Shown here: in pieces, positions 1 to 10,522 of the stretch
Layout: every line of letters starts with the position of its first letter
Position numbering within the stretch: the stretch's first letter is position 1
Source: a virus
IMG/VR virus record: IMGVR_UViG_3300025276_000022
Strand: one strand, 5' to 3'
DNA: 64,000 nt
Made by a program: the position numbers and the translations under genes
The notes under the pieces: model-generated
Database searches by the model: none
What the model was told of the DNA's origin: nothing
The model's input: only the letters and a program-made list of their open reading frames with translations

Positions 1-9
1 GACGGTGCG

Positions 10-528
10 ATGCAAAGAAGCTTGGTCTTCAGAGACTTGGGTTCTAATGATACGCTCAAGGAAGTTGCACGACAACTGCTAGATCAGAACGACATAGATA
101 CCTACATCTCTAAGTTTTTCCCTATGGTACCACTCGAAGGGTTTTCGGTGGGGTGGCACCAAGACAATCATTATATCAAGGCCGACCCTAGTCGTCTGAT
201 CAGTTGTGATGTATTTGTTAATGGTGCGGATAAGGAGAATGGTTGCCTACGTATTATACCTAACTCCCATACCGAAGAGTTTGACCATAACCAGAGATCA
301 CACCGTGTGTTTGACTGGATAGATATAGACGAAGAGTGTTCGACTATAGTAGACATAGAGTGTGACACTACATTCGCAGTTTTCTTTCACCCAAACCTAG
401 TACATGGATGTTATAGAAATAGAAGTGATAGATATCGTTATAGTATTGCTTGGGAATATATTCATGAAGGATATGTTCCGAAAACACATAATGGCCATAA
501 TTCTCAGGATAGGTTACCCGTGATATGA
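10..528 (+). CDS. Phytanoyl-CoA dioxygenase-family 2OG-Fe(II) oxygenase (possibly 5'-truncated by the window edge)
   Basis: WHQD (HxD), ENGCLRIIPNSH, distal LVHG and RYS motifs typical of the PhyH family. Confidence 0.85.
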   Translation: MQRSLVFRDLGSNDTLKEVARQLLDQNDIDTYISKFFPMVPLEGFSVGWHQDNHYIKADPSRLISCDVFVNGADKENGCLRIIPNSHTEEFDHNQRSHRVFDWIDIDEECSTIVDIECDTTFAVFFHPNLVHGCYRNRSDRYRYSIAWEYIHEGYVPKTHNGHNSQDRLPVI

Positions 529-1325
529 AAGCAATACAGATTGTAATAAAAGGTGACGAACGATCAGAAGAATATGCACATCTTTCTAGACGTTCTTTCC
601 AACGTGCCATCGACGATGGTTACATCGACTCCATCGAAACCTTCGATGCGATCACCCCCCAATCAGAAGACTTCCAAGAACATGTAGATAAGTACACGTG
701 GGATAAGAGTCTGATGACTCTAGATACACTTTCCGGAAAGGGTAAGGATGATCATTCCCCTACAGAGAAAGCTGGGATGTGTTCTCACTGGGAACTTATG
801 CGTCAACAAGGAGAGTCAGACGAGAAGTTCTGGATCATGGAACACGACACTTGGTTGATAGAAGAACGTTATGAAGCGTTTAAACTTCTCTCGGAGTACT
901 CTGAAAACACCCTCTATGCGAACATTGGACTATTCATGGGCATGTACTGCATGGACAAAGGGTTTGCTCACTGGAGTCAACACATGTTGACCAACAACGA
1001 TTTTCCTATAAACTGCGGCCCATACTGCGTTTTACAACGTCTTTTCAGAACATACACAACTGACTACCTTACTCGCCCAGAAATAAATTATTACGGAATT
1101 CGCAATACCGCCTTGCATCCTTGGTCTGGATGTGATACAATAGGCGTAGGTCGTGACATTGGAGTTTACTTTAATTTATTTGACGAACATAATACTGGTA
1201 TCCCAACACCAACAACTCAGTTGATTTCAAAACGTCTGAGTGTGACTCAAGACCACCATGGCTATAAAGATACGCATATACAAGAACCTTGGACTAGACA
1301 CAAATTCTTTAAGGTAATTGATTGA
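525..1325 (+). CDS. GT25-like glycosyltransferase
   Basis: FDAITP, EKAGMCSHWELM and IMEHD motifs of GT25 (LPS biosynthesis) proteins. Confidence 0.65.
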   Translation: MKAIQIVIKGDERSEEYAHLSRRSFQRAIDDGYIDSIETFDAITPQSEDFQEHVDKYTWDKSLMTLDTLSGKGKDDHSPTEKAGMCSHWELMRQQGESDEKFWIMEHDTWLIEERYEAFKLLSEYSENTLYANIGLFMGMYCMDKGFAHWSQHMLTNNDFPINCGPYCVLQRLFRTYTTDYLTRPEINYYGIRNTALHPWSGCDTIGVGRDIGVYFNLFDEHNTGIPTPTTQLISKRLSVTQDHHGYKDTHIQEPWTRHKFFKVID

Positions 1326-1333
1326 TAAGGGGG

Positions 1334-1362
1334 TTGACAGACAGCGCTAAATAATGTATAAT
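1334..1362 (+). promoter_or_regulatory. Sigma70-type early promoter
   Basis: TTGACA-17nt-TATAAT. Confidence 0.85.
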
Positions 1363-1388
1363 GTATATTAAATCGTGAAAGGTCTTAT

Positions 1389-2537
1389 ATGAATTATCAA
1401 CCATACAATCTCCAAGATGTCTATGACGCGGCATCTCAGAAAAAATTTAAAGTAGTGTCTACGTTCGCTGGCGGTGGTGGTTCATCCACTGGATACCGAC
1501 TGGCAGGTGCTGACATTCTCGCAGTTAACGAGTTCGTCGAAGAAGCACGGGTCACCTATAAAGAGAACTATCCGGACACTCCAATTCTTCCCGACGATAT
1601 CAAACAACTATCTGGTAAAGATTTCCTAGAGCTCACTGGTCTCAAGAAAGGTGAACTGGATATTCTTGACGGATCTCCTCCTTGCTCTGCATTTTCTGTT
1701 GCAGGCAAACTCTCTCATTCATCTGATGGTAAACACTCTGATGGTTGGGGACAGACCAAGTCCTATAGTGACGGTAAGATTGTCGAGAACATCGAAGACT
1801 TGTTCTTTGAGTTCTTACGTGTAGCTAAAGAAATCTCCCCCAAGGTAATCATCGCAGAGAATGTTAAAGGTCTGACCATTGGTGAGGCAAAAGAATACTA
1901 CAACCGCATCCTTAATGAATTCGAGAATATTGGATATGAGGTTGTCTCTGAGGTTATGGATTCTCGTTACTACGGTGTCTCTCAGACTCGTACTCGTGTA
2001 ATCTTCATTGCCGTAAGACAAGATGTTGCCGACGAGGTTGGGTTAAACTTCCTAACTATGAATCACTTGTTCCCTGCACCAAGCCGCACAGCGATCCCTC
2101 TCAAGGATGTTCTGGTTGGTCTGGAGTATGATAACGAAGAAGTCGAGTACCTAACAGAGAAGTTCGAAAGAACTGCGTACTGGAAAGATACTGGATCTCT
2201 GATGCCAACCTTTCCTGATAAAGTTTTGACTGGGGGTGACTATCATCCGAAAGGTCACCACTTCAATCTCAAGAGAGTATCGCTCGAAGTCCCTGCCCCT
2301 ACTCTTACTGCGATGGGTAGCGGAGATACTACTGCTGGTGCATTTCATTGGAGTGATCCAAGAAAGTTGACACTAGGTGAATTAAAGCGTATAATGTCAC
2401 TACCCGATGACTTTAAACTAACGGGCAAGTGGAACCAGAAGGCAGAACGTATTGGTCGTATGGTACCACCATTAATGATGAAACAGATTGCTGAGTCAGT
2501 CTATGATAACGTATTGAAGGTATATAATGAAAGATAG
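1389..2537 (+). CDS. DNA cytosine-C5 methyltransferase, probable carboxymethyltransferase
   Basis: Motifs FAGGGG (I), GSPPC (IV), ENV (VI), QTRTR (VIII); motif X reads GRMVPP instead of GN(A/S)VP. Confidence 0.9.
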   Translation: MNYQPYNLQDVYDAASQKKFKVVSTFAGGGGSSTGYRLAGADILAVNEFVEEARVTYKENYPDTPILPDDIKQLSGKDFLELTGLKKGELDILDGSPPCSAFSVAGKLSHSSDGKHSDGWGQTKSYSDGKIVENIEDLFFEFLRVAKEISPKVIIAENVKGLTIGEAKEYYNRILNEFENIGYEVVSEVMDSRYYGVSQTRTRVIFIAVRQDVADEVGLNFLTMNHLFPAPSRTAIPLKDVLVGLEYDNEEVEYLTEKFERTAYWKDTGSLMPTFPDKVLTGGDYHPKGHHFNLKRVSLEVPAPTLTAMGSGDTTAGAFHWSDPRKLTLGELKRIMSLPDDFKLTGKWNQKAERIGRMVPPLMMKQIAESVYDNVLKVYNER

Positions 2538-3246
2538 AGAAAGCACAACCCATAGAGATTTTACATTCGGTCACCGCGAAGAAGGTTTCGATAATCATAT
2601 CGATGCTTCGATTCGCCACTACTCCTCACTACACGATGACGTAGTAAACTTATCTCGTTACTTTGTAGAGAACGATACTAAGGTTGTAGACATTGGATGT
2701 AGTACAGGTAAGACCATCGAAGCCATGGTCAAACAGAATCATGAAACTGCGCCCAATGCACATTACTGTGGTGTTGAGTATGCCGAAGTGTTTCAAGCAG
2801 AGATGACTGATCGAGAAAAGAGACTTAATGGTGAAGGTCATCATATCTGTTTTCAAAACAAGAACATCATCCACCACAACTTTTCAAACTGTTCTCTTGT
2901 AACTTCTATCTTCACGTTGCAGTTCATGCAACCGCTATGGAGAAAGAAGGTAATGCAAAACATCTATGATGGTCTTAACGAAGGCGGTGCGTTCATCTTT
3001 GCCGAGAAGACTTATTCAGAGAACTCACGTATCCAAGATATGATAACCTCTACGTTCTATGAGTACAAAGCAGAGCACTTCACCTATGAAGATATTATGG
3101 AGAAAGAGAAGACTCTCCGAACTATGTTGAAACCAATGACTTGGAACGAGCTTGTCGCTCTACTAACCTCAGTTGGTTTTGATTCGACAAAGATTCAACC
3201 GTTCTGGATGAATCATTTGTTCGTCGGTGCTATTGCAATAAAGTAA
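2527..3246 (+). CDS. cmoA: CmoA-like carboxy-S-adenosylmethionine synthase
   Basis: DFTF..F..HI..SI..Y, VVDIGCSTG, FTLQF, IYDGLNEGGAFIFAEK align with bacterial CmoA. Confidence 0.85.
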   Translation: MKDRESTTHRDFTFGHREEGFDNHIDASIRHYSSLHDDVVNLSRYFVENDTKVVDIGCSTGKTIEAMVKQNHETAPNAHYCGVEYAEVFQAEMTDREKRLNGEGHHICFQNKNIIHHNFSNCSLVTSIFTLQFMQPLWRKKVMQNIYDGLNEGGAFIFAEKTYSENSRIQDMITSTFYEYKAEHFTYEDIMEKEKTLRTMLKPMTWNELVALLTSVGFDSTKIQPFWMNHLFVGAIAIK

Positions 3247-3265
3247 ATTATTTAGCTATAAGCCC

Positions 3266-3294
3266 TTGACTTTTGTTTCGAAAAGAGGTATAAT
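3266..3294 (+). promoter_or_regulatory. Early promoter of the TTGACTTTTGTTT cassette family
   Basis: TTGACT-17-TATAAT; near-identical to 45817-45845 and shares the GAGTTGAGAGAGA leader. Confidence 0.85.
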
Positions 3295-3332
3295 AGGTAC
3301 TTAGTTAATCGAGTTGAGAGAGAAAATATATT

Positions 3333-4820
3333 ATGATTGCGACGAACTCTACCCACATACATAAAATTGTTTGCGAAGAACTTGTGTCTAAATCTCATGA
3401 GGCGTACACCTACAAGTGGACTATCAAAGACCCTGATAGCAATAAAACCTATTTTTATGGTGGTCGCAGACATAACGAGTATCAGCCTAATGCGTATATG
3501 CATTCAAGTAAGAATGCTAAATTTCTTGACATTCTTAGTAAGAGTAAGGATGTAACATATGAGGTCACTTCTGTAGGTACTCATGAAGAGGCAGCGCTCG
3601 AAGAGGCTCGAATGTTAACAGACTCTAAAGCTAAGAGTTCAGAATATTGGTTTAACTCTACCAATGGTTTAGGTGGTAAAGGTGGTAAAGGTGTTGGTAA
3701 AACATTATTTTTAGACACTCTCACTAGTGAGATGAAACGTCTTATGAACGGTGAAGAAAACCTTAAACCAGACCAAGTCGGGCCTATGGGTATCACCAAG
3801 GGCAACTACTCAAAAGCAGATTTAAGAGATATTGTTGTTATCCGACAACAATTCGTACAAACGCGTTCATACCAATTTAATTCCTCTCACGTATCTACTT
3901 TGGCGGAAGGGTTTGATAAGAAATCTGACCCAAATGAATGGGAACCTATTGTCGTTCTTCTGGATGCTAAGGTAATAGATAACAAAGTAGTATATTGTGA
4001 CAAAGGTGGCGTAGTTGTTATTTCAGGTAATCACCGTTCGCGTGGTTTAGTACGTTCTACTAATGGAGTATCTTTGAATGCCTATAACATTCCCCATAAG
4101 TCTTGGGAAAAATTAGACGACATAGACATGAGAACGTTATCTAATAGATTTAACCCAAACCCTGAAAAACCTGTACTCAAGCAAGACCCTGAAGCGGCCG
4201 CAGCATGGGTCTTGGGTTGGTGTGAAAATAGAGGTCTAACAAAGATTGCTGATGATGGAGTTACAAAGATACCTGATATTAAACACTCCCTCGTTAAAAA
4301 GGAACTTATCGAAGTTAATAACTACACTCAGGGCGATTTCAATAGTGTTATAAAAGAGTGCCAGAAAAAAATCGAGAAACAATTTATAGCTGATGGAGAT
4401 AATATGCTAGATTGGGCAGACGCGGCTATGTCTCTAGACCCTGTCTTAGCTGGTACCCTTGACCATTATAAAACGAGGTTAATAGACGAAGGGCAACATA
4501 CCGATGTTTATAAGATTTCAGGTAAGGTTCTTAACTGGGGTAAACTCTCAGATAGGATTTATGATAAAAAACAATGCGAGATTAAGACCCATCATAACTT
4601 ATTGGTATTAGTGTACCATGCGACTAAGGAAGATATGAAGGAGTGTAAAAAGGGTCTATATAAAAAATGTAAAGTATTCTCAGATGATTTTATTGCGGGT
4701 AAACCAGACCGTAAAATTGAGTATATGCATCTGCCTATCACCAAGTCATACCTTCAATATAAAAGCCCGTTGAAGCTTGACTATGATATTGTTTGCGATA
4801 AACTAGTAGAAGGTTTGTAA
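3333..4820 (+). CDS. Seg-like GIY-YIG domain fused to a ParB/Srx-like domain
   Basis: N-terminal YTY..FYGG..YMHSS..E..WFNSTN pattern; central PIVVL..ISGNHR ParB-like motif. Confidence 0.6.
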   Translation: MIATNSTHIHKIVCEELVSKSHEAYTYKWTIKDPDSNKTYFYGGRRHNEYQPNAYMHSSKNAKFLDILSKSKDVTYEVTSVGTHEEAALEEARMLTDSKAKSSEYWFNSTNGLGGKGGKGVGKTLFLDTLTSEMKRLMNGEENLKPDQVGPMGITKGNYSKADLRDIVVIRQQFVQTRSYQFNSSHVSTLAEGFDKKSDPNEWEPIVVLLDAKVIDNKVVYCDKGGVVVISGNHRSRGLVRSTNGVSLNAYNIPHKSWEKLDDIDMRTLSNRFNPNPEKPVLKQDPEAAAAWVLGWCENRGLTKIADDGVTKIPDIKHSLVKKELIEVNNYTQGDFNSVIKECQKKIEKQFIADGDNMLDWADAAMSLDPVLAGTLDHYKTRLIDEGQHTDVYKISGKVLNWGKLSDRIYDKKQCEIKTHHNLLVLVYHATKEDMKECKKGLYKKCKVFSDDFIAGKPDRKIEYMHLPITKSYLQYKSPLKLDYDIVCDKLVEGL

Positions 4821-5687
4821 TTGATACGAGACTTACTTATCGACCACATAACAGGAAAGGTGCCGCACGATAAGGTTGCGGTACTTCTTTCTGGTGGTGT
4901 TGACAGTATCAGTGTGGCAATCGCTGCACAGGATGCTGGGAAGACTGTACACGCGTATAGTTTCCATCTCGAAGGACAACCATCTTATGACCATGCGAAG
5001 GCAAAAGAAGTCGCAGAAATCATGGGGTGGGAGTTCACCACTATTATCGTCCCTACTGATAACCTAGTTGAAGACTGGCACCGACTAGTCAAACATGGTT
5101 GTCGCAAGAAATCCCACTACGAAGCCGCAGTGTTTCCCTTCCTCTATTGTTATGAAAACATGTTAGAAGAATACTGTATTACTGGATGGGGTGCAGACGC
5201 CTACTTCGGTTGCAGTAAGAAAGCAATGATACGATACTCTTCTTTTAAAAAGAAGCGCAACTACGTCAAGTACTGTAAAGAGAACAACCAGACGAGAGTT
5301 AACTGGAATGAGTTCCGTAATGCCTATCTAGACGGAGACTGTGCAGGACTACAGCAACACACCAATCTTGCAGAGAAGCATGGTAAGGTGCATGTCACTC
5401 CATATCTAGACCCACGCGTACGCGAGTACTTTATGAAGTTTTCGTGGGAAGAACTCAACAAACCAAAACAAAAGAATATAATCCGTGAAGAATTTAATAT
5501 TGAAGATCTGTTTGGGAAAGTCAAGCCCCATATCAATCTTCAGTTGGGTAGTGGTATTGATACACTGTTCGAGACTCTTCTGGATAATCCGGAGGTAAAC
5601 TATAAAAGAAGACAGCGAGTGATGGACATGTGCCGCGACTGGTACACCGATCATACTACTTCTAATCTTTCTGATTTCATGTCTTGA
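4821..5687 (+). CDS. Asparagine synthase-like PP-loop ATP-dependent amide ligase (no glutaminase domain)
   Basis: LLSGGVDS PP-loop, ITGWGADAYFG, TPYLD and KNIIR motifs; TTG start. Confidence 0.8.
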   Translation: MIRDLLIDHITGKVPHDKVAVLLSGGVDSISVAIAAQDAGKTVHAYSFHLEGQPSYDHAKAKEVAEIMGWEFTTIIVPTDNLVEDWHRLVKHGCRKKSHYEAAVFPFLYCYENMLEEYCITGWGADAYFGCSKKAMIRYSSFKKKRNYVKYCKENNQTRVNWNEFRNAYLDGDCAGLQQHTNLAEKHGKVHVTPYLDPRVREYFMKFSWEELNKPKQKNIIREEFNIEDLFGKVKPHINLQLGSGIDTLFETLLDNPEVNYKRRQRVMDMCRDWYTDHTTSNLSDFMS

Positions 5688-5712
5688 CAGACTCTCCTAA
5701 TCAAGGTATAAT
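5684..5712 (+). promoter_or_regulatory. Sigma70-type early promoter for gp43
   Basis: TTGACA-17-TATAAT, 6 nt before the ATG. Confidence 0.85.
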
Positions 5713-5718
5713 AGCCCC

Positions 5719-8196
5719 ATGACAAAATTTTACTCTTCTGCTATCCGTATGGGTAAGCACATTCTATATCGCGGTTACGAGAACGGCCTACAGGTCAAGA
5801 AACGTATTCCATTCCAACCTAAACTATATGTCACCAGTCAGAACGAATCTGATTGGAAGACTCTGGACGGTCTCCCCGTTGCCGAGTGCGTCTTGGACTC
5901 TATGTCTGATGCGACTGACTTCCTCAAGAAGTATGCTGATGTGCATAACTTCAAGGTATATGGTAACAACAATTACGTTGCCCAGTATATCGGTGAACAA
6001 TTTCCCAATAAGATAAACTTCGACCGCGATCTAATCCGGACTGCCAATATCGATATCGAGGTTTATAGTAAGGAAGGTTTCCCTGAGCCAGGCAAGGCTG
6101 CATATCCAGTGACCTCTATTACAATGCGCAAGAATGATGGCACCTACTGGGTGTGGGCATGTGGAGACTATGTCACTACTCGTGAAGAAGTCCTCTATAT
6201 CAAATGCGACAACGAGATGGATCTTCTCCGCAAGTTTATTGAGCACTGGTCTCACTACGCTCCTGACATTCTGACAGGTTGGAACAGTCGGTTCTTCGAT
6301 ATCCCATACATCGTTAACCGTTGCGTTAACCTGTTCGGTGATGACACGTTATTGAAACGACTATCTCCTTGGGGTGCGGTACGTGAACGTAATGTAACTA
6401 TTCAAGGTCGCGCCAATCAGGAATACGTGATTGAAGGTGTCGAGCACCTAGATTACATTGAAATCTTTAAGAAGTTCACACTCAACACTCTGGGTCAACA
6501 AGAATCCTATCGTCTAGACCATATCGCCCACGTTGTCTTGGGTGAACGCAAGTTGTCCTATGAGGAGCACGGAAACCTCCACGCTCTTTATGAAAACGAC
6601 TTCCAAAAGTTTATTGACTATAACATCAAAGACGTGGAGTTGGTTCACAAGATCGATGAGAAACTCGACTTGATTACTCTGGTACTCACCATGGCATATC
6701 GTGGTGGTGTTAACTATGGTGACACACTTGGTACTACTAACATCTGGGACAGCATCATCTACCGTATGCTGAACAAGATGAAGGTCGTAGTTCCTTCCAA
6801 ATCTGAGAAGCCTAAGACTTCATATCCGGGCGGTTATGTTAAAGAACCTCAAGTTGGGTCACACGACTGGGTTACCTCTTTTGATTTGGCGTCTCTATAT
6901 CCCAACATCATTGTTCAATATAACATGTCACCTGAGACTGTGATGGACGGTTTCCATAATGGTGTAAGCGTCGATAAGTTTCTTGATGGATCATACAAGG
7001 TATCTGAGTCTAACGTCTCTATTGCGCCAACTGGAGTCGCTTTCTCACATGATAGAGAGGGGGTCATTCCTACGGTGATTAAACAATACTACACGGAACG
7101 TAGTCTTATCAAGAAGGAGATGTTGAAACTCCAGCAGGAATACCAGAAGAATCCGACTAATGCTTTGGCCTATAGGATATCGTCACTGGACAACCAACAG
7201 ATGGCTATCAAGATTCTTATGAACTCCCTCTATGGTGCGCTCGGTAATCGATACTTCCGTTACTTTGATCAACGTGTTGCAGAGTCAATTACTCTTGCAG
7301 GGCAACTTGCAATCAAATGGGCAGAGAGAGCAGCCAATAATGAGATGCAGAAACTTCTTAAAACAGATGAAGATTATGTTGTAGCAATTGACACGGATTC
7401 TCTATACATTCGTATGTCTGCCCTTGTGGATAAGTTTTCTCCTAAAGACCCTGTAAAGTTTCTTGACAAGATATGTTCCGAGCACTTCGAGAAAGTTCTG
7501 GAAAATTCTTATAATGAGATGGCAGAAGTTACTGGTGCGTACGAGAATCGTATGGTGATGGAACGTGAGGTAATCGCAGACCGTGGTATCTGGATGGCGA
7601 AGAAACGATATATCCTTAATGTGCATAACTCTGAGGGTGTGCAGTACGCAGAACCTAAACTCAAGATGATGGGTATCGAGGCAATCAAGTCATCGACTCC
7701 TTCGGTTGTCCGTGACAAGATGAAAGAAATCTTCCGCGTCATTGTAGAAGGTACCGAGGAAACCACCCAGAGATTTATCCGTGAGTTCAAGACTCTGTTT
7801 AATACATTACCACCCGAAGATGTTTCGTGGCCCCGTGGTATCTCTAATCTCGATAAGTGGAAAGACCGAGAGACTATTTTCAAGAAGGGTACTCCCATAC
7901 ATGTTCGCGGTGCGTTATGTTATAACAATCTAATCAAGGAGAATAATCTTGGTAATAGATATGAACTGGTCAAGCCAGGCGAGAAGGTAAAGTTCGTCTA
8001 TCTAAAAGTACCGAATCGTCTGGGTGAAAACGTTGTGGCATATCCTCAACATCTCCCCGAAGAACTGGGACTGGGTAAGTATATCGATTACGACTTAATG
8101 TTCAGTAAGACTTTCATTGCCCCTCTCGAACCAATTCTTGATGCAGTCGGTTGGGCTTCTGAACCTCGTGCCACATTGGAGGACTTCTTCGGATGA
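5719..8196 (+). CDS. 43: Family B DNA polymerase (T4 gp43-like)
   Basis: DIEV exonuclease motif, [27 protein letters not shown]; C-terminal clamp-binding LEDFF. Confidence 0.97.
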
Positions 8197-8609
8197 TCAC
8201 AGACTTTTGCGTTATATGCGGAACGAAAGAAAATCTTCATAACCATCATATTGTTTGTAAGAAGAGTAAACTGAAACCAATATCTGGCGACATTGATCAT
8301 TATACAAACCTCATAACTCTCTGTGGAGAACATCATGGGTGGATTCATGGTATGAAACCTAATAGATTCAATGACAATAACCGTTTAAGAACGGCTGGAA
8401 TAAAGAAAGCACAGAAAGAAGGAAAGTATCTTGGACGTGTTCCAACTGCGCAAAGAAAGTCTAAAGAGATTCAGAGATTGCATTCAGAAGGAATGAAACC
8501 GGCATTAATTGCAAAGGAACTCAACATAGGAGTCGCGAGTGTCTACCGATATAGAGAAAAAGAAAAAAAACAAAAGCAAATGACAGATCAAGCGCAATTC
8601 TTCGGTTGA
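8193..8609 (+). CDS. HNH endonuclease with C-terminal resolvase-type HTH
   Basis: CVIC..HHI..NLITLC..HH..IH, then [20 protein letters not shown]. Confidence 0.8.
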
Positions 8610-8634
8610 CAGACACCCAACGTTATGGTATAAT
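8606..8634 (+). promoter_or_regulatory. Sigma70-type early promoter
   Basis: TTGACA-17-TATAAT, 6 nt before ATG 8641. Confidence 0.85.
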
Positions 8635-8640
8635 GGCCAC

Positions 8641-9582
8641 ATGAATTACGAATTAACTATATTTAAAAATCAGTTCGATAACAAGACCCATCGTCATATG
8701 GTTCTTGACGATTGGTATAAGTTCGTAAATGTCCTGAAGAACATGTATAAAGAGAAAGGAGAGAAAGGTGGAAATAATTCTAGTCCTCTTGTTAGTCCTG
8801 CTGTTTTCGAAGTGGATACTACGCGTAGTAATAAATCTACTCGCTATTGGGGTGGGTGGTGTTGCGTTGATGTTGATGATCATAATTTCTCTAGCGATGT
8901 TCGAGTCCTTAACCAAGAGTTGCACGAACTCTTTGGCCAGTACGACTACGTTGTGTACAACACTGCATCAAGCAGAGACGACCATCTCAAGTTTAGAATC
9001 GTATTTCGACTAGATGAACATATCGATAATGCTCGGATCAAGGCATTCTGGTATGCACTGAATACTGAACTGGGTGAGATGGGAGATCCACAGACCAAAG
9101 ATCTTGCACGTATGTATTATGTTCCTGCACAGTACCCTAATGCGACTTCGTTCTTCATTACTAATCAAGGGTCTGCTCTAAACACATCTGAGTTGATCGC
9201 AAAACATCCTTACCATGAAAAGACTGGTAATTCTTTCTTAGACAGACTACCTGTAGAGATGCAACAGGCAGTTATACAACATCGTAAGGACAGTCTAAAT
9301 AATACCGACTACAATTGGTCGACATACCGTGACTGTCCGTTCTGGCCCAAACGATTGGGTGTAGAGTACCAAACTATCAATGATGGTGGTTGGTACGCTA
9401 AGATGTATAAGATTATGCTTGCAGTTGCTGGGAATGCATATGCGAAAGGTTACCCTATCACCGCAAGTCAGATCTCAGATATGTGTCGTGATTTTGATCG
9501 TGAGACAGGTAACTGGTATGAAAACCGCCCATTGACCGTAGAGGCTGATAGGGCATTAGAATATATTTACAGGAATAGTTAA
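8641..9582 (+). CDS. AEP-superfamily primase/polymerase-like protein
   Basis: VDVDD, YNTASS..KFRIVF and DPQTKDLARMYY motifs. Confidence 0.65.
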   Translation: MNYELTIFKNQFDNKTHRHMVLDDWYKFVNVLKNMYKEKGEKGGNNSSPLVSPAVFEVDTTRSNKSTRYWGGWCCVDVDDHNFSSDVRVLNQELHELFGQYDYVVYNTASSRDDHLKFRIVFRLDEHIDNARIKAFWYALNTELGEMGDPQTKDLARMYYVPAQYPNATSFFITNQGSALNTSELIAKHPYHEKTGNSFLDRLPVEMQQAVIQHRKDSLNNTDYNWSTYRDCPFWPKRLGVEYQTINDGGWYAKMYKIMLAVAGNAYAKGYPITASQISDMCRDFDRETGNWYENRPLTVEADRALEYIYRNS

Positions 9583-9583
9583 T

Positions 9584-10522
9584 ATGAATAGAGTATTAGT
9601 AACAGGTGCAGCAGGATTTATCGGTTCACAATTATCGGATCGATTACAGAAACGTGGATTGACAGTGAAAGGTATTGATAATTTCAATAACCATCTATAC
9701 ACTCCTGAATTAAAAGTAGATCGTATGAAACACTTCGATCTAGATATCTGGGGATGTGATCTAAAGGATGAGATAAAGCTCGAAGCGTTATTGAGAGACT
9801 TCCGTCCAGACACTATTATTCATCTTGCCGCAATGGCAGGCGTTCGTGATTCTATGGGAAAAGAGAAGTCGTACCACGCAAATAACATAGATGCTACACA
9901 GAACCTTATTGATATCTGTAAACAACATCTACCAGAGACTCGCATTGTATATGCGTCAACGTCTTGTGTATATGCTGGATCCCCGACTCCGTGGACAGAA
10001 GGTGAAGAGACTGGTAAACAATTAAACGCATATGGTTATACCAAGTGGGCGAATGAATGTCAGATGCAATCGTCTGGTCTAAACACAACTGGTCTACGTT
10101 TCTTCACAGTATATGGCCCTTGGGGTCGTCCTGATATGGCTTTGTTTGACTTTACTAAAAATATACTTGACGGAAAGGAAATAACCGTGTATAATTACGG
10201 TAAGATGAAGAGAGACTTCACTTTCGTAGAAGATATCCTAGACGGTATTGAAGTTGTCTTAGACAATGACGATCTATCGGGAGAGATATTTAATATCGGA
10301 CGTGGTGAACAAGTCGAGTTGCTAGACTTCATTGGTGAGATCGAGAAACAAACTGGGAAGAAAGCAATTAAGAATCTTGCTCCCCAACATCCTGCGGATA
10401 CTTTAGAGACTTGGTCTAATACTGCTAAGTTACAAGCACTTGGTTATGACCCGAAGGTAAGTATCGCAGAGGGTGTTGAAAGATTTTACGAATGGTTTAA
10501 AACTTATAATGGAATCGAATAA
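9584..10522 (+). CDS. NAD-dependent epimerase (UDP-glucuronate 4-epimerase-like)
   Basis: TGAAGFIG, HLAAMAGVR, YGYTK, LRFFTVYGPWGRPDMA. Confidence 0.92.
   Translation: MNRVLVTGAAGFIGSQLSDRLQKRGLTVKGIDNFNNHLYTPELKVDRMKHFDLDIWGCDLKDEIKLEALLRDFRPDTIIHLAAMAGVRDSMGKEKSYHANNIDATQNLIDICKQHLPETRIVYASTSCVYAGSPTPWTEGEETGKQLNAYGYTKWANECQMQSSGLNTTGLRFFTVYGPWGRPDMALFDFTKNILDGKEITVYNYGKMKRDFTFVEDILDGIEVVLDNDDLSGEIFNIGRGEQVELLDFIGEIEKQTGKKAIKNLAPQHPADTLETWSNTAKLQALGYDPKVSIAEGVERFYEWFKTYNGIE

Follow-up and report, generated by a model that had tools for sequence, protein, structure and literature searches.

A predicted CmoY-type amide ligase in the carboxymethylcytosine gene cassette of an uncultured marine cyanophage

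An uncultured marine T4-like cyanophage carries, at 4821..5687 (+ strand), a gene predicted to encode an ATP-dependent amide ligase of the CmoY type, with phage DNA as its substrate and glycine as its most likely amine. The probability of this reading as a whole is put at roughly 0.6. The window analyzed is a 64,000-nucleotide stretch of the IMG/VR virus record IMGVR_UViG_3300025276_000022. Taken part by part, it is very probable that the protein is an amide ligase for DNA containing 5-carboxymethylcytosine (5cxmC), and slightly better than an even bet that the amine is glycine; another amine is possible but considered unlikely. For this ligase, the observations are its homology, its domain architecture, the conservation of catalytic motifs, its synteny, and fusions of related genes; its activity, DNA substrate, and amine, as well as any role of the insert described below, are inferred.

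The underlying chemistry is known from the pathway that Yang et al. (Nat Commun 2025;17:281; PMC12783734) described in Synechococcus phage S-B43. In this phage, CmoA produces carboxy-SAM, and CmoX puts 5cxmC at GC sites of double-stranded DNA (PMC12783734). The ligase SpCmoY, a 271-aa asparagine-synthetase homologue without a glutaminase domain, uses ATP to join glycine to 5cxmC both in E. coli and in vitro. Co-expression of CmoX and SpCmoY converts 5cxmdC (m/z 286.1) to 5-glycylcarboxymethyl-dC (m/z 343.1), purified SpCmoY requires ATP and glycine, and 5-glycylcarboxymethylcytosine is found in S-B43 virion DNA (PMC12783734). The same authors surveyed 2,251 ligases adjoining CmoX genes. SpCmoY falls in the largest ligase cluster, for which residues that bind the carboxylate of glycine are predicted. 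In a second cluster the ligase is joined to a glutaminase domain, and further clusters differ in their pocket residues and use amines yet to be identified (PMC12783734). The threshold that Yang et al. set for the glycine-type cluster is 1e-56. In the literature, no paper besides theirs names CmoY.

An earlier note on this DNA had deduced that the gene encodes an ATP-dependent ligase joining an amine or amino acid to carboxymethylated cytosine in DNA. The same chemistry is proven for the homologue SpCmoY, and clear orthologues of CmoX and CmoA are encoded in the vicinity of the gene. Because the ligase is a clear relative of CmoY, whose activity was shown in 2025, this deduction was correct but had already been published; the gene is a further example of a known system and not a discovery. 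What the window adds to the newly described carboxymethylcytosine-amide hypermodification is a further lineage of T4-like cyanophages, marine and uncultured, with good representation in the Tara, ENA, and JGI metagenomes. With the core chemistry published, the residual novelty is the possible use of another amine by the subclade to which the ligase belongs.

The ligase gene and its cassette

The ligase is encoded by a single open frame of 288 codons plus a stop, and the reverse strand of 4821-5687 is closed by many stops. Translation is predicted to begin at a TTG that directly follows the TAA of the upstream ORF. This start is supported because the closest homologues have ATG at the same aligned codon (MIREIL... 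versus [TTG]IRDLL...) and because GAAGG lies 8 nt upstream. The protein has 271 near-length homologues; cluster representatives number 602. Two motifs stand out in the translation, as the earlier note had recognized in calling it a stand-alone PP-loop synthetase domain. The PP-loop SGGVDS, an ATP pyrophosphatase motif (residues 24-29; 4890..4907, + strand), lies within LLSGGVDS (residues 22-29; nt 4884-4907) and aligns to SGGLDS of E. coli AsnB. The second motif, TGWGAD (residues 121-126; 5181..5198, + strand), lies within ITGWGAD (residues 120-126; nt 5178-5198) and aligns to S346-G-E348-G-S-D351 of AsnB. The Asn_synthase-type domain is far beyond a chance match (Pfam Asn_synthase, 2.3e-16, 60.8 bits against a cutoff of 21, residues 18-139), and nearly the whole protein matches phrog_26038, a PHROG of unknown function (2.5e-27, residues 2-268).

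Relatedness to SpCmoY (UniProt A0A514ABJ0) extends over the full length of the protein. In a BLASTP comparison, the two ligases share 46% identity over 279 aa (226 bits, 5e-78), and both consist of a stand-alone AsnB-type synthetase domain (288 aa in the window, 271 aa in S-B43) with the PP-loop and the family-wide conserved residues in common. Each comes from a T4-like cyanophage that also encodes CmoA and CmoX. A tblastn search of 50,697 phage records with the ligase gave S-B43 and two near-identical relatives as the best matches (4e-65). Marine data sets hold many close metagenomic relatives of the ligase, from 92% identity downward. When the cassette was compared with the phage records by megablast, only the DNA polymerase region matched (73.6% to Phage C48C1), which argues that the phage has no close cultured relative.

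Genes upstream of the ligase are predicted to supply the two preceding steps of the S-B43 pathway. The cmoX orthologue (1389..2537, + strand) encodes a predicted DNA cytosine C5-carboxymethyltransferase that matches PDB 8YF3, the structure of S-B43 SpCmoX, at 4e-154 and is 64% identical to it. It retains the SPPC cysteine, Cys99, and the motif X arginine, Arg357, which corresponds to the SpCmoX Arg350 that binds the carboxylate of carboxy-SAM. The cmoA orthologue (2527..3246, + strand) encodes a predicted carboxy-SAM synthase (TIGR00740, 9e-30; 52% identity to SpCmoA). The earlier note placed the ligase gene between cmoA and gp43. The family-B DNA polymerase gene gp43 (5719-8196, + strand) is indeed the next gene downstream, but a 495-codon ORF, here ORF495 (3333..4820, + strand), separates the ligase gene from cmoA. 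Every neighbor listed around the ligase gene lies on the + strand.

This arrangement is shared with other loci. The order cmoX-cmoA-(one ORF)-cmoY-polB is found in L002-L004 and in part in L005-L008, while L009 has the order ORF478-cmoY-cmoX. The window order, cmoX-cmoA-ORF495-cmoY, differs from that of S-B43, which is cmoA-cmoY-cmoX. Furthermore, the ligase and the methylase occur as natural fusions of about 610-700 aa, in the order CmoY-CmoX in P0165, P0167, and P0225 and in the order CmoX-CmoY in P0192 and P0200. Such fusions to C5 DNA methylase domains connect the ligase family with C5 chemistry on DNA cytosines without recourse to the published work (PMC12783734), and in both orders they are Rosetta-stone evidence for joint action on DNA. 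They also serve, together with the recurrent GIY-YIG/ParB-like neighbor considered below, as leads on how the pathway is organized and possibly policed.

A promoter-like sequence was noted between the ligase gene and gp43 (5684-5721, + strand). TTGACA at 5684-5689 overlaps the ligase stop codon and is followed, after a 17-nt spacer, by TATAAT at 5707-5712. The gp43 ATG at 5719 lies just 6 nt past this -10 box, so that the polymerase mRNA may be leaderless or nearly so.

Fold, active site, and proposed reaction

An AlphaFold2 model of the ligase built from 57 sequences is of high confidence, with a pLDDT of 92.9 and a pTM of 0.89. Foldseek matched the model to beta-lactam synthetase (1MC1, E 1.7e-11), carbapenam synthetase (1Q19), human ASNS, and E. 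coli AsnB (1CT9), in each case through the C-terminal synthetase domain (TMq 0.64-0.68, E 1e-9 to 1e-11). A sequence search of the PDB with the ligase gave nothing at E <= 0.01, and the solved structures are linked to it by fold comparison only. With AsnB and the beta-lactam and carbapenam synthetases, the window ligase shares the synthetase-domain fold, the PP-loop, and, by prediction, the chemistry of carboxylate adenylation. It differs from them in having no N-terminal domain, in its substitutions at the AsnB Glu348 and Glu352 positions, and in the predicted location of the carboxylate on a DNA base.

The earlier note's description of the protein as glutaminase-less holds. A family profile of about 120 members aligned to E. 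coli AsnB covers AsnB 210-449 only, which is the synthetase domain. Family scans gave no GATase match in the 288-aa protein, and no glutaminase gene was found near it. In this respect the ligase differs from the glutaminase-fused members of the CmoY clusters, such as A0A7T0Q3R0, which make up the second-largest cluster of the survey (PMC12783734). Those proteins are AMP-forming ligases too and are likewise linked to CmoX and CmoA, but they have an Ntn glutaminase domain, and ammonia from glutamine is their predicted substrate.

Residues conserved across the family and present in the window ligase include S24, G26, D28, and S29 of the PP-loop as well as F48, D57, K97, E101, G122, A125, D126, R166, N213, and K218. 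By contrast with AsnB, the position of Glu348 is occupied by Trp123 (Ile in SpCmoY and Leu in the ligase of Dickeya phage AD1), and that of Glu352 by Ala127; Asp351 is kept as D126. In human ASNS, the corresponding residues Glu364, Asp367, and Glu368 bind the alpha-amino group of aspartate, and Glu364 is needed for catalysis (PMC6748925). The ligase thus appears to combine an adenylating core with a remodeled acceptor site, as is expected for a CmoY.

These residues bear on whether the gene could instead encode an ammonia-dependent asparagine synthetase, or another adenylating enzyme for a small molecule or tRNA, and so be an auxiliary metabolic gene that has nothing to do with DNA. The Pfam Asn_synthase match would fit such an enzyme, as would source names of homologues such as 'asparagine synthetase B'. 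However, the score against the curated asparagine synthetase model TIGR01536 is 49.3 bits, far below its cutoff of 267.1; the protein has no glutaminase domain; and the gene is tightly linked to C5 DNA methylases, to which it is fused in relatives. Moreover, the acidic pocket that accepts aspartate in AsnB is lost, including a glutamate required for catalysis (PMC6748925), which argues that the ligase is not an asparagine synthetase. With the curated cutoff missed and the active-site Glu missing, this candidate was rejected and is regarded as very improbable.

A role as a QueC-like 7-cyano-7-deazaguanine synthase in a deazapurine DNA modification pathway is more improbable still, to the point of being negligible. 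It is suggested by weak matches to Pfam QueC (3.5e-06), TIGR00364 (8.9e-06), and phrog_1550; the weaker Pfam matches of the ligase, to QueC, NAD_synthase, and tRNA_Me_trans, involve the PP-loop region only. The QueC-type matches are limited to about the first 60 residues (residues 21-77 for TIGR00364); over its full length, the protein matches CmoY. The ORFs scanned at 1-10,522 include no other gene of the queuosine or Dpd type. This candidate was rejected on the curated TIGR00364 cutoff, which the ligase misses with 25.4 bits against 150.3.

For the preferred CmoY-type ligase, a course of reaction can be proposed. CmoA would convert SAM and prephenate to carboxy-SAM, and CmoX would move the carboxymethyl group onto cytosine C5, at GC sites in the case of S-B43. 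The ligase would act next, once the phage's own double-stranded DNA has been replicated, and its PP-loop SGGVDS would adenylate the 5cxmC carboxylate. Attack of the amine on the acyl-adenylate would release AMP and leave an amide. With glycine as the amine, the product would be 5-glycylcarboxymethylcytosine, which may shield the DNA from host restriction.

A subclade with a basic insert and the identity of the amine

The ligase belongs to a subclade of CmoY that is marked out by a basic insert and by altered active-site positions. The earlier note had pointed to a basic insert, and comparison with SpCmoY bears this out and delimits it. The segment SSFKKKRNYVKY spans residues 140-151 (nt 5238-5273), and the insertion relative to SpCmoY comprises the 16 residues KRNYVKYCKENNQTRV at 145-160 (5253..5300, + strand), which form a helix plus a loop in the model (pLDDT about 89-95). 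By profile alignment, the insertion falls between the AsnB HKAPNAKE segment and the following helix. It is missing from SpCmoY, from the AD1 ligase, and from all representatives of about 120 clusters at 50% identity but two. Those two clusters make up the insert-bearing marine subclade, to which every one of the 57 sequences in alignment A1 belongs. Across these 57 members, the segment at residues 140-165 has a mean net charge of +4.4, with K144, Y148, K153, and R159 well conserved. DNA binding by the insert, which the earlier note had raised, is plausible but hypothetical.

Three further residues are near-invariant in the subclade and differ from SpCmoY: W123 (Ile in SpCmoY), R138 (His), and H180 (Ile). 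W123 is at the position of AsnB Glu348, beside the nucleophile site. H180 is placed near the Asp384/Arg387 region of AsnB by a profile alignment that is approximate and possibly off by 1-2 residues. In AsnB, the positions of two of the three subclade residues, W123 and H180, line the active site. Together, the insert and these three residues suggest that the amine pocket may differ from that of SpCmoY.

This raises the alternative that the subclade, although of the same enzyme class and acting on the same DNA substrate, ligates another amine (an amino acid, a polyamine, or ammonia) to 5cxmC and so makes an undescribed base. The insert and the near-invariant W123, R138, and H180, all specific to the subclade, speak for it, as does the existence of several ligase clusters with distinct pockets and unidentified amines (PMC12783734). 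The ligase is also the least conserved of the three enzymes relative to S-B43, at 46% identity compared with 52% for CmoA and 64% for CmoX. On the other side, the pairwise score between the window ligase and SpCmoY is well inside the 1e-56 threshold of the glycine type, and K97, E101, R166, and K218, polar residues shared by the whole family, are retained without exception. Family scans detected no amine-biosynthesis gene in the cassette. Furthermore, since family members have L, I, W, V, or M at position 123, this residue may not determine specificity.

On balance, another amine is a tentative alternative, and glycine is kept as the default on the strength of overall similarity, the retained polar core, and a cassette without an amine-biosynthesis gene. 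The earlier note's suggestion of a new hypermodified base is not supported as it was put: the base is already known if the amine is glycine, and a different amine, which is possible, would be compatible with a new one. A broader proposal, in which the insert-bearing subclade attaches a non-glycine amine to 5-carboxymethylcytosine or its product is processed further by the PhyH-type 2OG oxygenase or the GT25-like ORF266 described below, is rather doubtful. If it were true, abundant uncultured ocean phages would bear an undescribed cytosine adduct.

Phylogenetic placement was derived from a quick maximum-likelihood search. In this tree, the window ligase groups with nine other insert-bearing sequences, and that group is nested in a 24-row clade that also contains SpCmoY (SH-aLRT 92, unstarred). 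The ligases of Erwinia and Dickeya jumbo phages (Alexandravirus, e.g., AD1_018) are full-length relatives at 37-39% identity that adjoin a CmoA-like methyltransferase. Unlike the window ligase, they lie beside a DUF1611 protein, have no insert, and form a separate clade in the same quick tree. In these jumbo phages, as represented by Dickeya phage AD1 (L010; MH460463, 12233-14932), the CmoY-like ligase is preceded by a methyltransferase and a DUF1611 protein instead of a C5 methylase. Their cassette is a variant that may make a different adduct.

ORF495 and other accessory genes

ORF495, which lies between cmoA and cmoY, combines a GIY-YIG-like N-terminal domain with a central ParB-like region (GNHRSRG), both recognized through weak matches, and is considered accessory. 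A family scan of ORF495 gave no match. Its relatives number only six, at 37-100% identity, and those with visible context are all encoded immediately upstream of cmoY (cmoA-ORF-cmoY in L006-L008; ORF-cmoY-cmoX in L009). Invariant residues Y25, Y27, Y42, G44, R45, H47, E85, E86, and N108 fit a GIY-YIG nuclease. The AlphaFold model of ORF495 is poor (pLDDT 55.5). In this poor model, the N-terminal domain matches the I-TevI catalytic domain weakly (Z 5.4, 81 residues) and also the GIY-YIG 5hmC-specific endonuclease PD-T4-3 (Z 4.9). The central invariant SGNHRSRG gave a sub-threshold match to ddrB-ParB (E 0.071), and ESM Atlas leads include ParB, DndB, and GmrSD_N; the ParB-like part is treated as a lead.

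ORF495 could be a homing enzyme of the Seg type, or else a nuclease that leaves modified DNA uncut, as does T4 EndoII. In the closest relatives of the window, whose CmoY is 92% identical, the ORF495 slot is occupied by an unrelated 299-aa ORF. A BLASTP comparison of the two ORFs found nothing, hhalign gave a homology probability of 0.2, and PDB profile searches with each were empty.

ORF495 and the ligase gene are in the same frame, with a single TAA between them. A read-through fusion of the two was considered and rejected, since the corresponding genes of relatives are 35 nt apart and in different frames (L006). The shared frame in the window is therefore coincidental.

Upstream of cmoX, the window begins with a gene for a PhyH-type 2OG oxygenase that is cut at the window edge (1-528, + strand), followed by ORF266 (525-1325, + strand), which has no family match. 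Both are present in L002, ORF266 alone in L007, and neither in L003. Their variable presence argues that they are not core to the pathway, and they are possibly variable accessories unrelated to DNA modification. The sole lead on ORF266 comes from its ESM Atlas neighbors, 28% of which have Glyco_transf_25. [quoted passage not shown] It has weak HNH nuclease matches and a resolvase-type HTH_7 match (3.6e-07) and may be a small homing-endonuclease-like gene.
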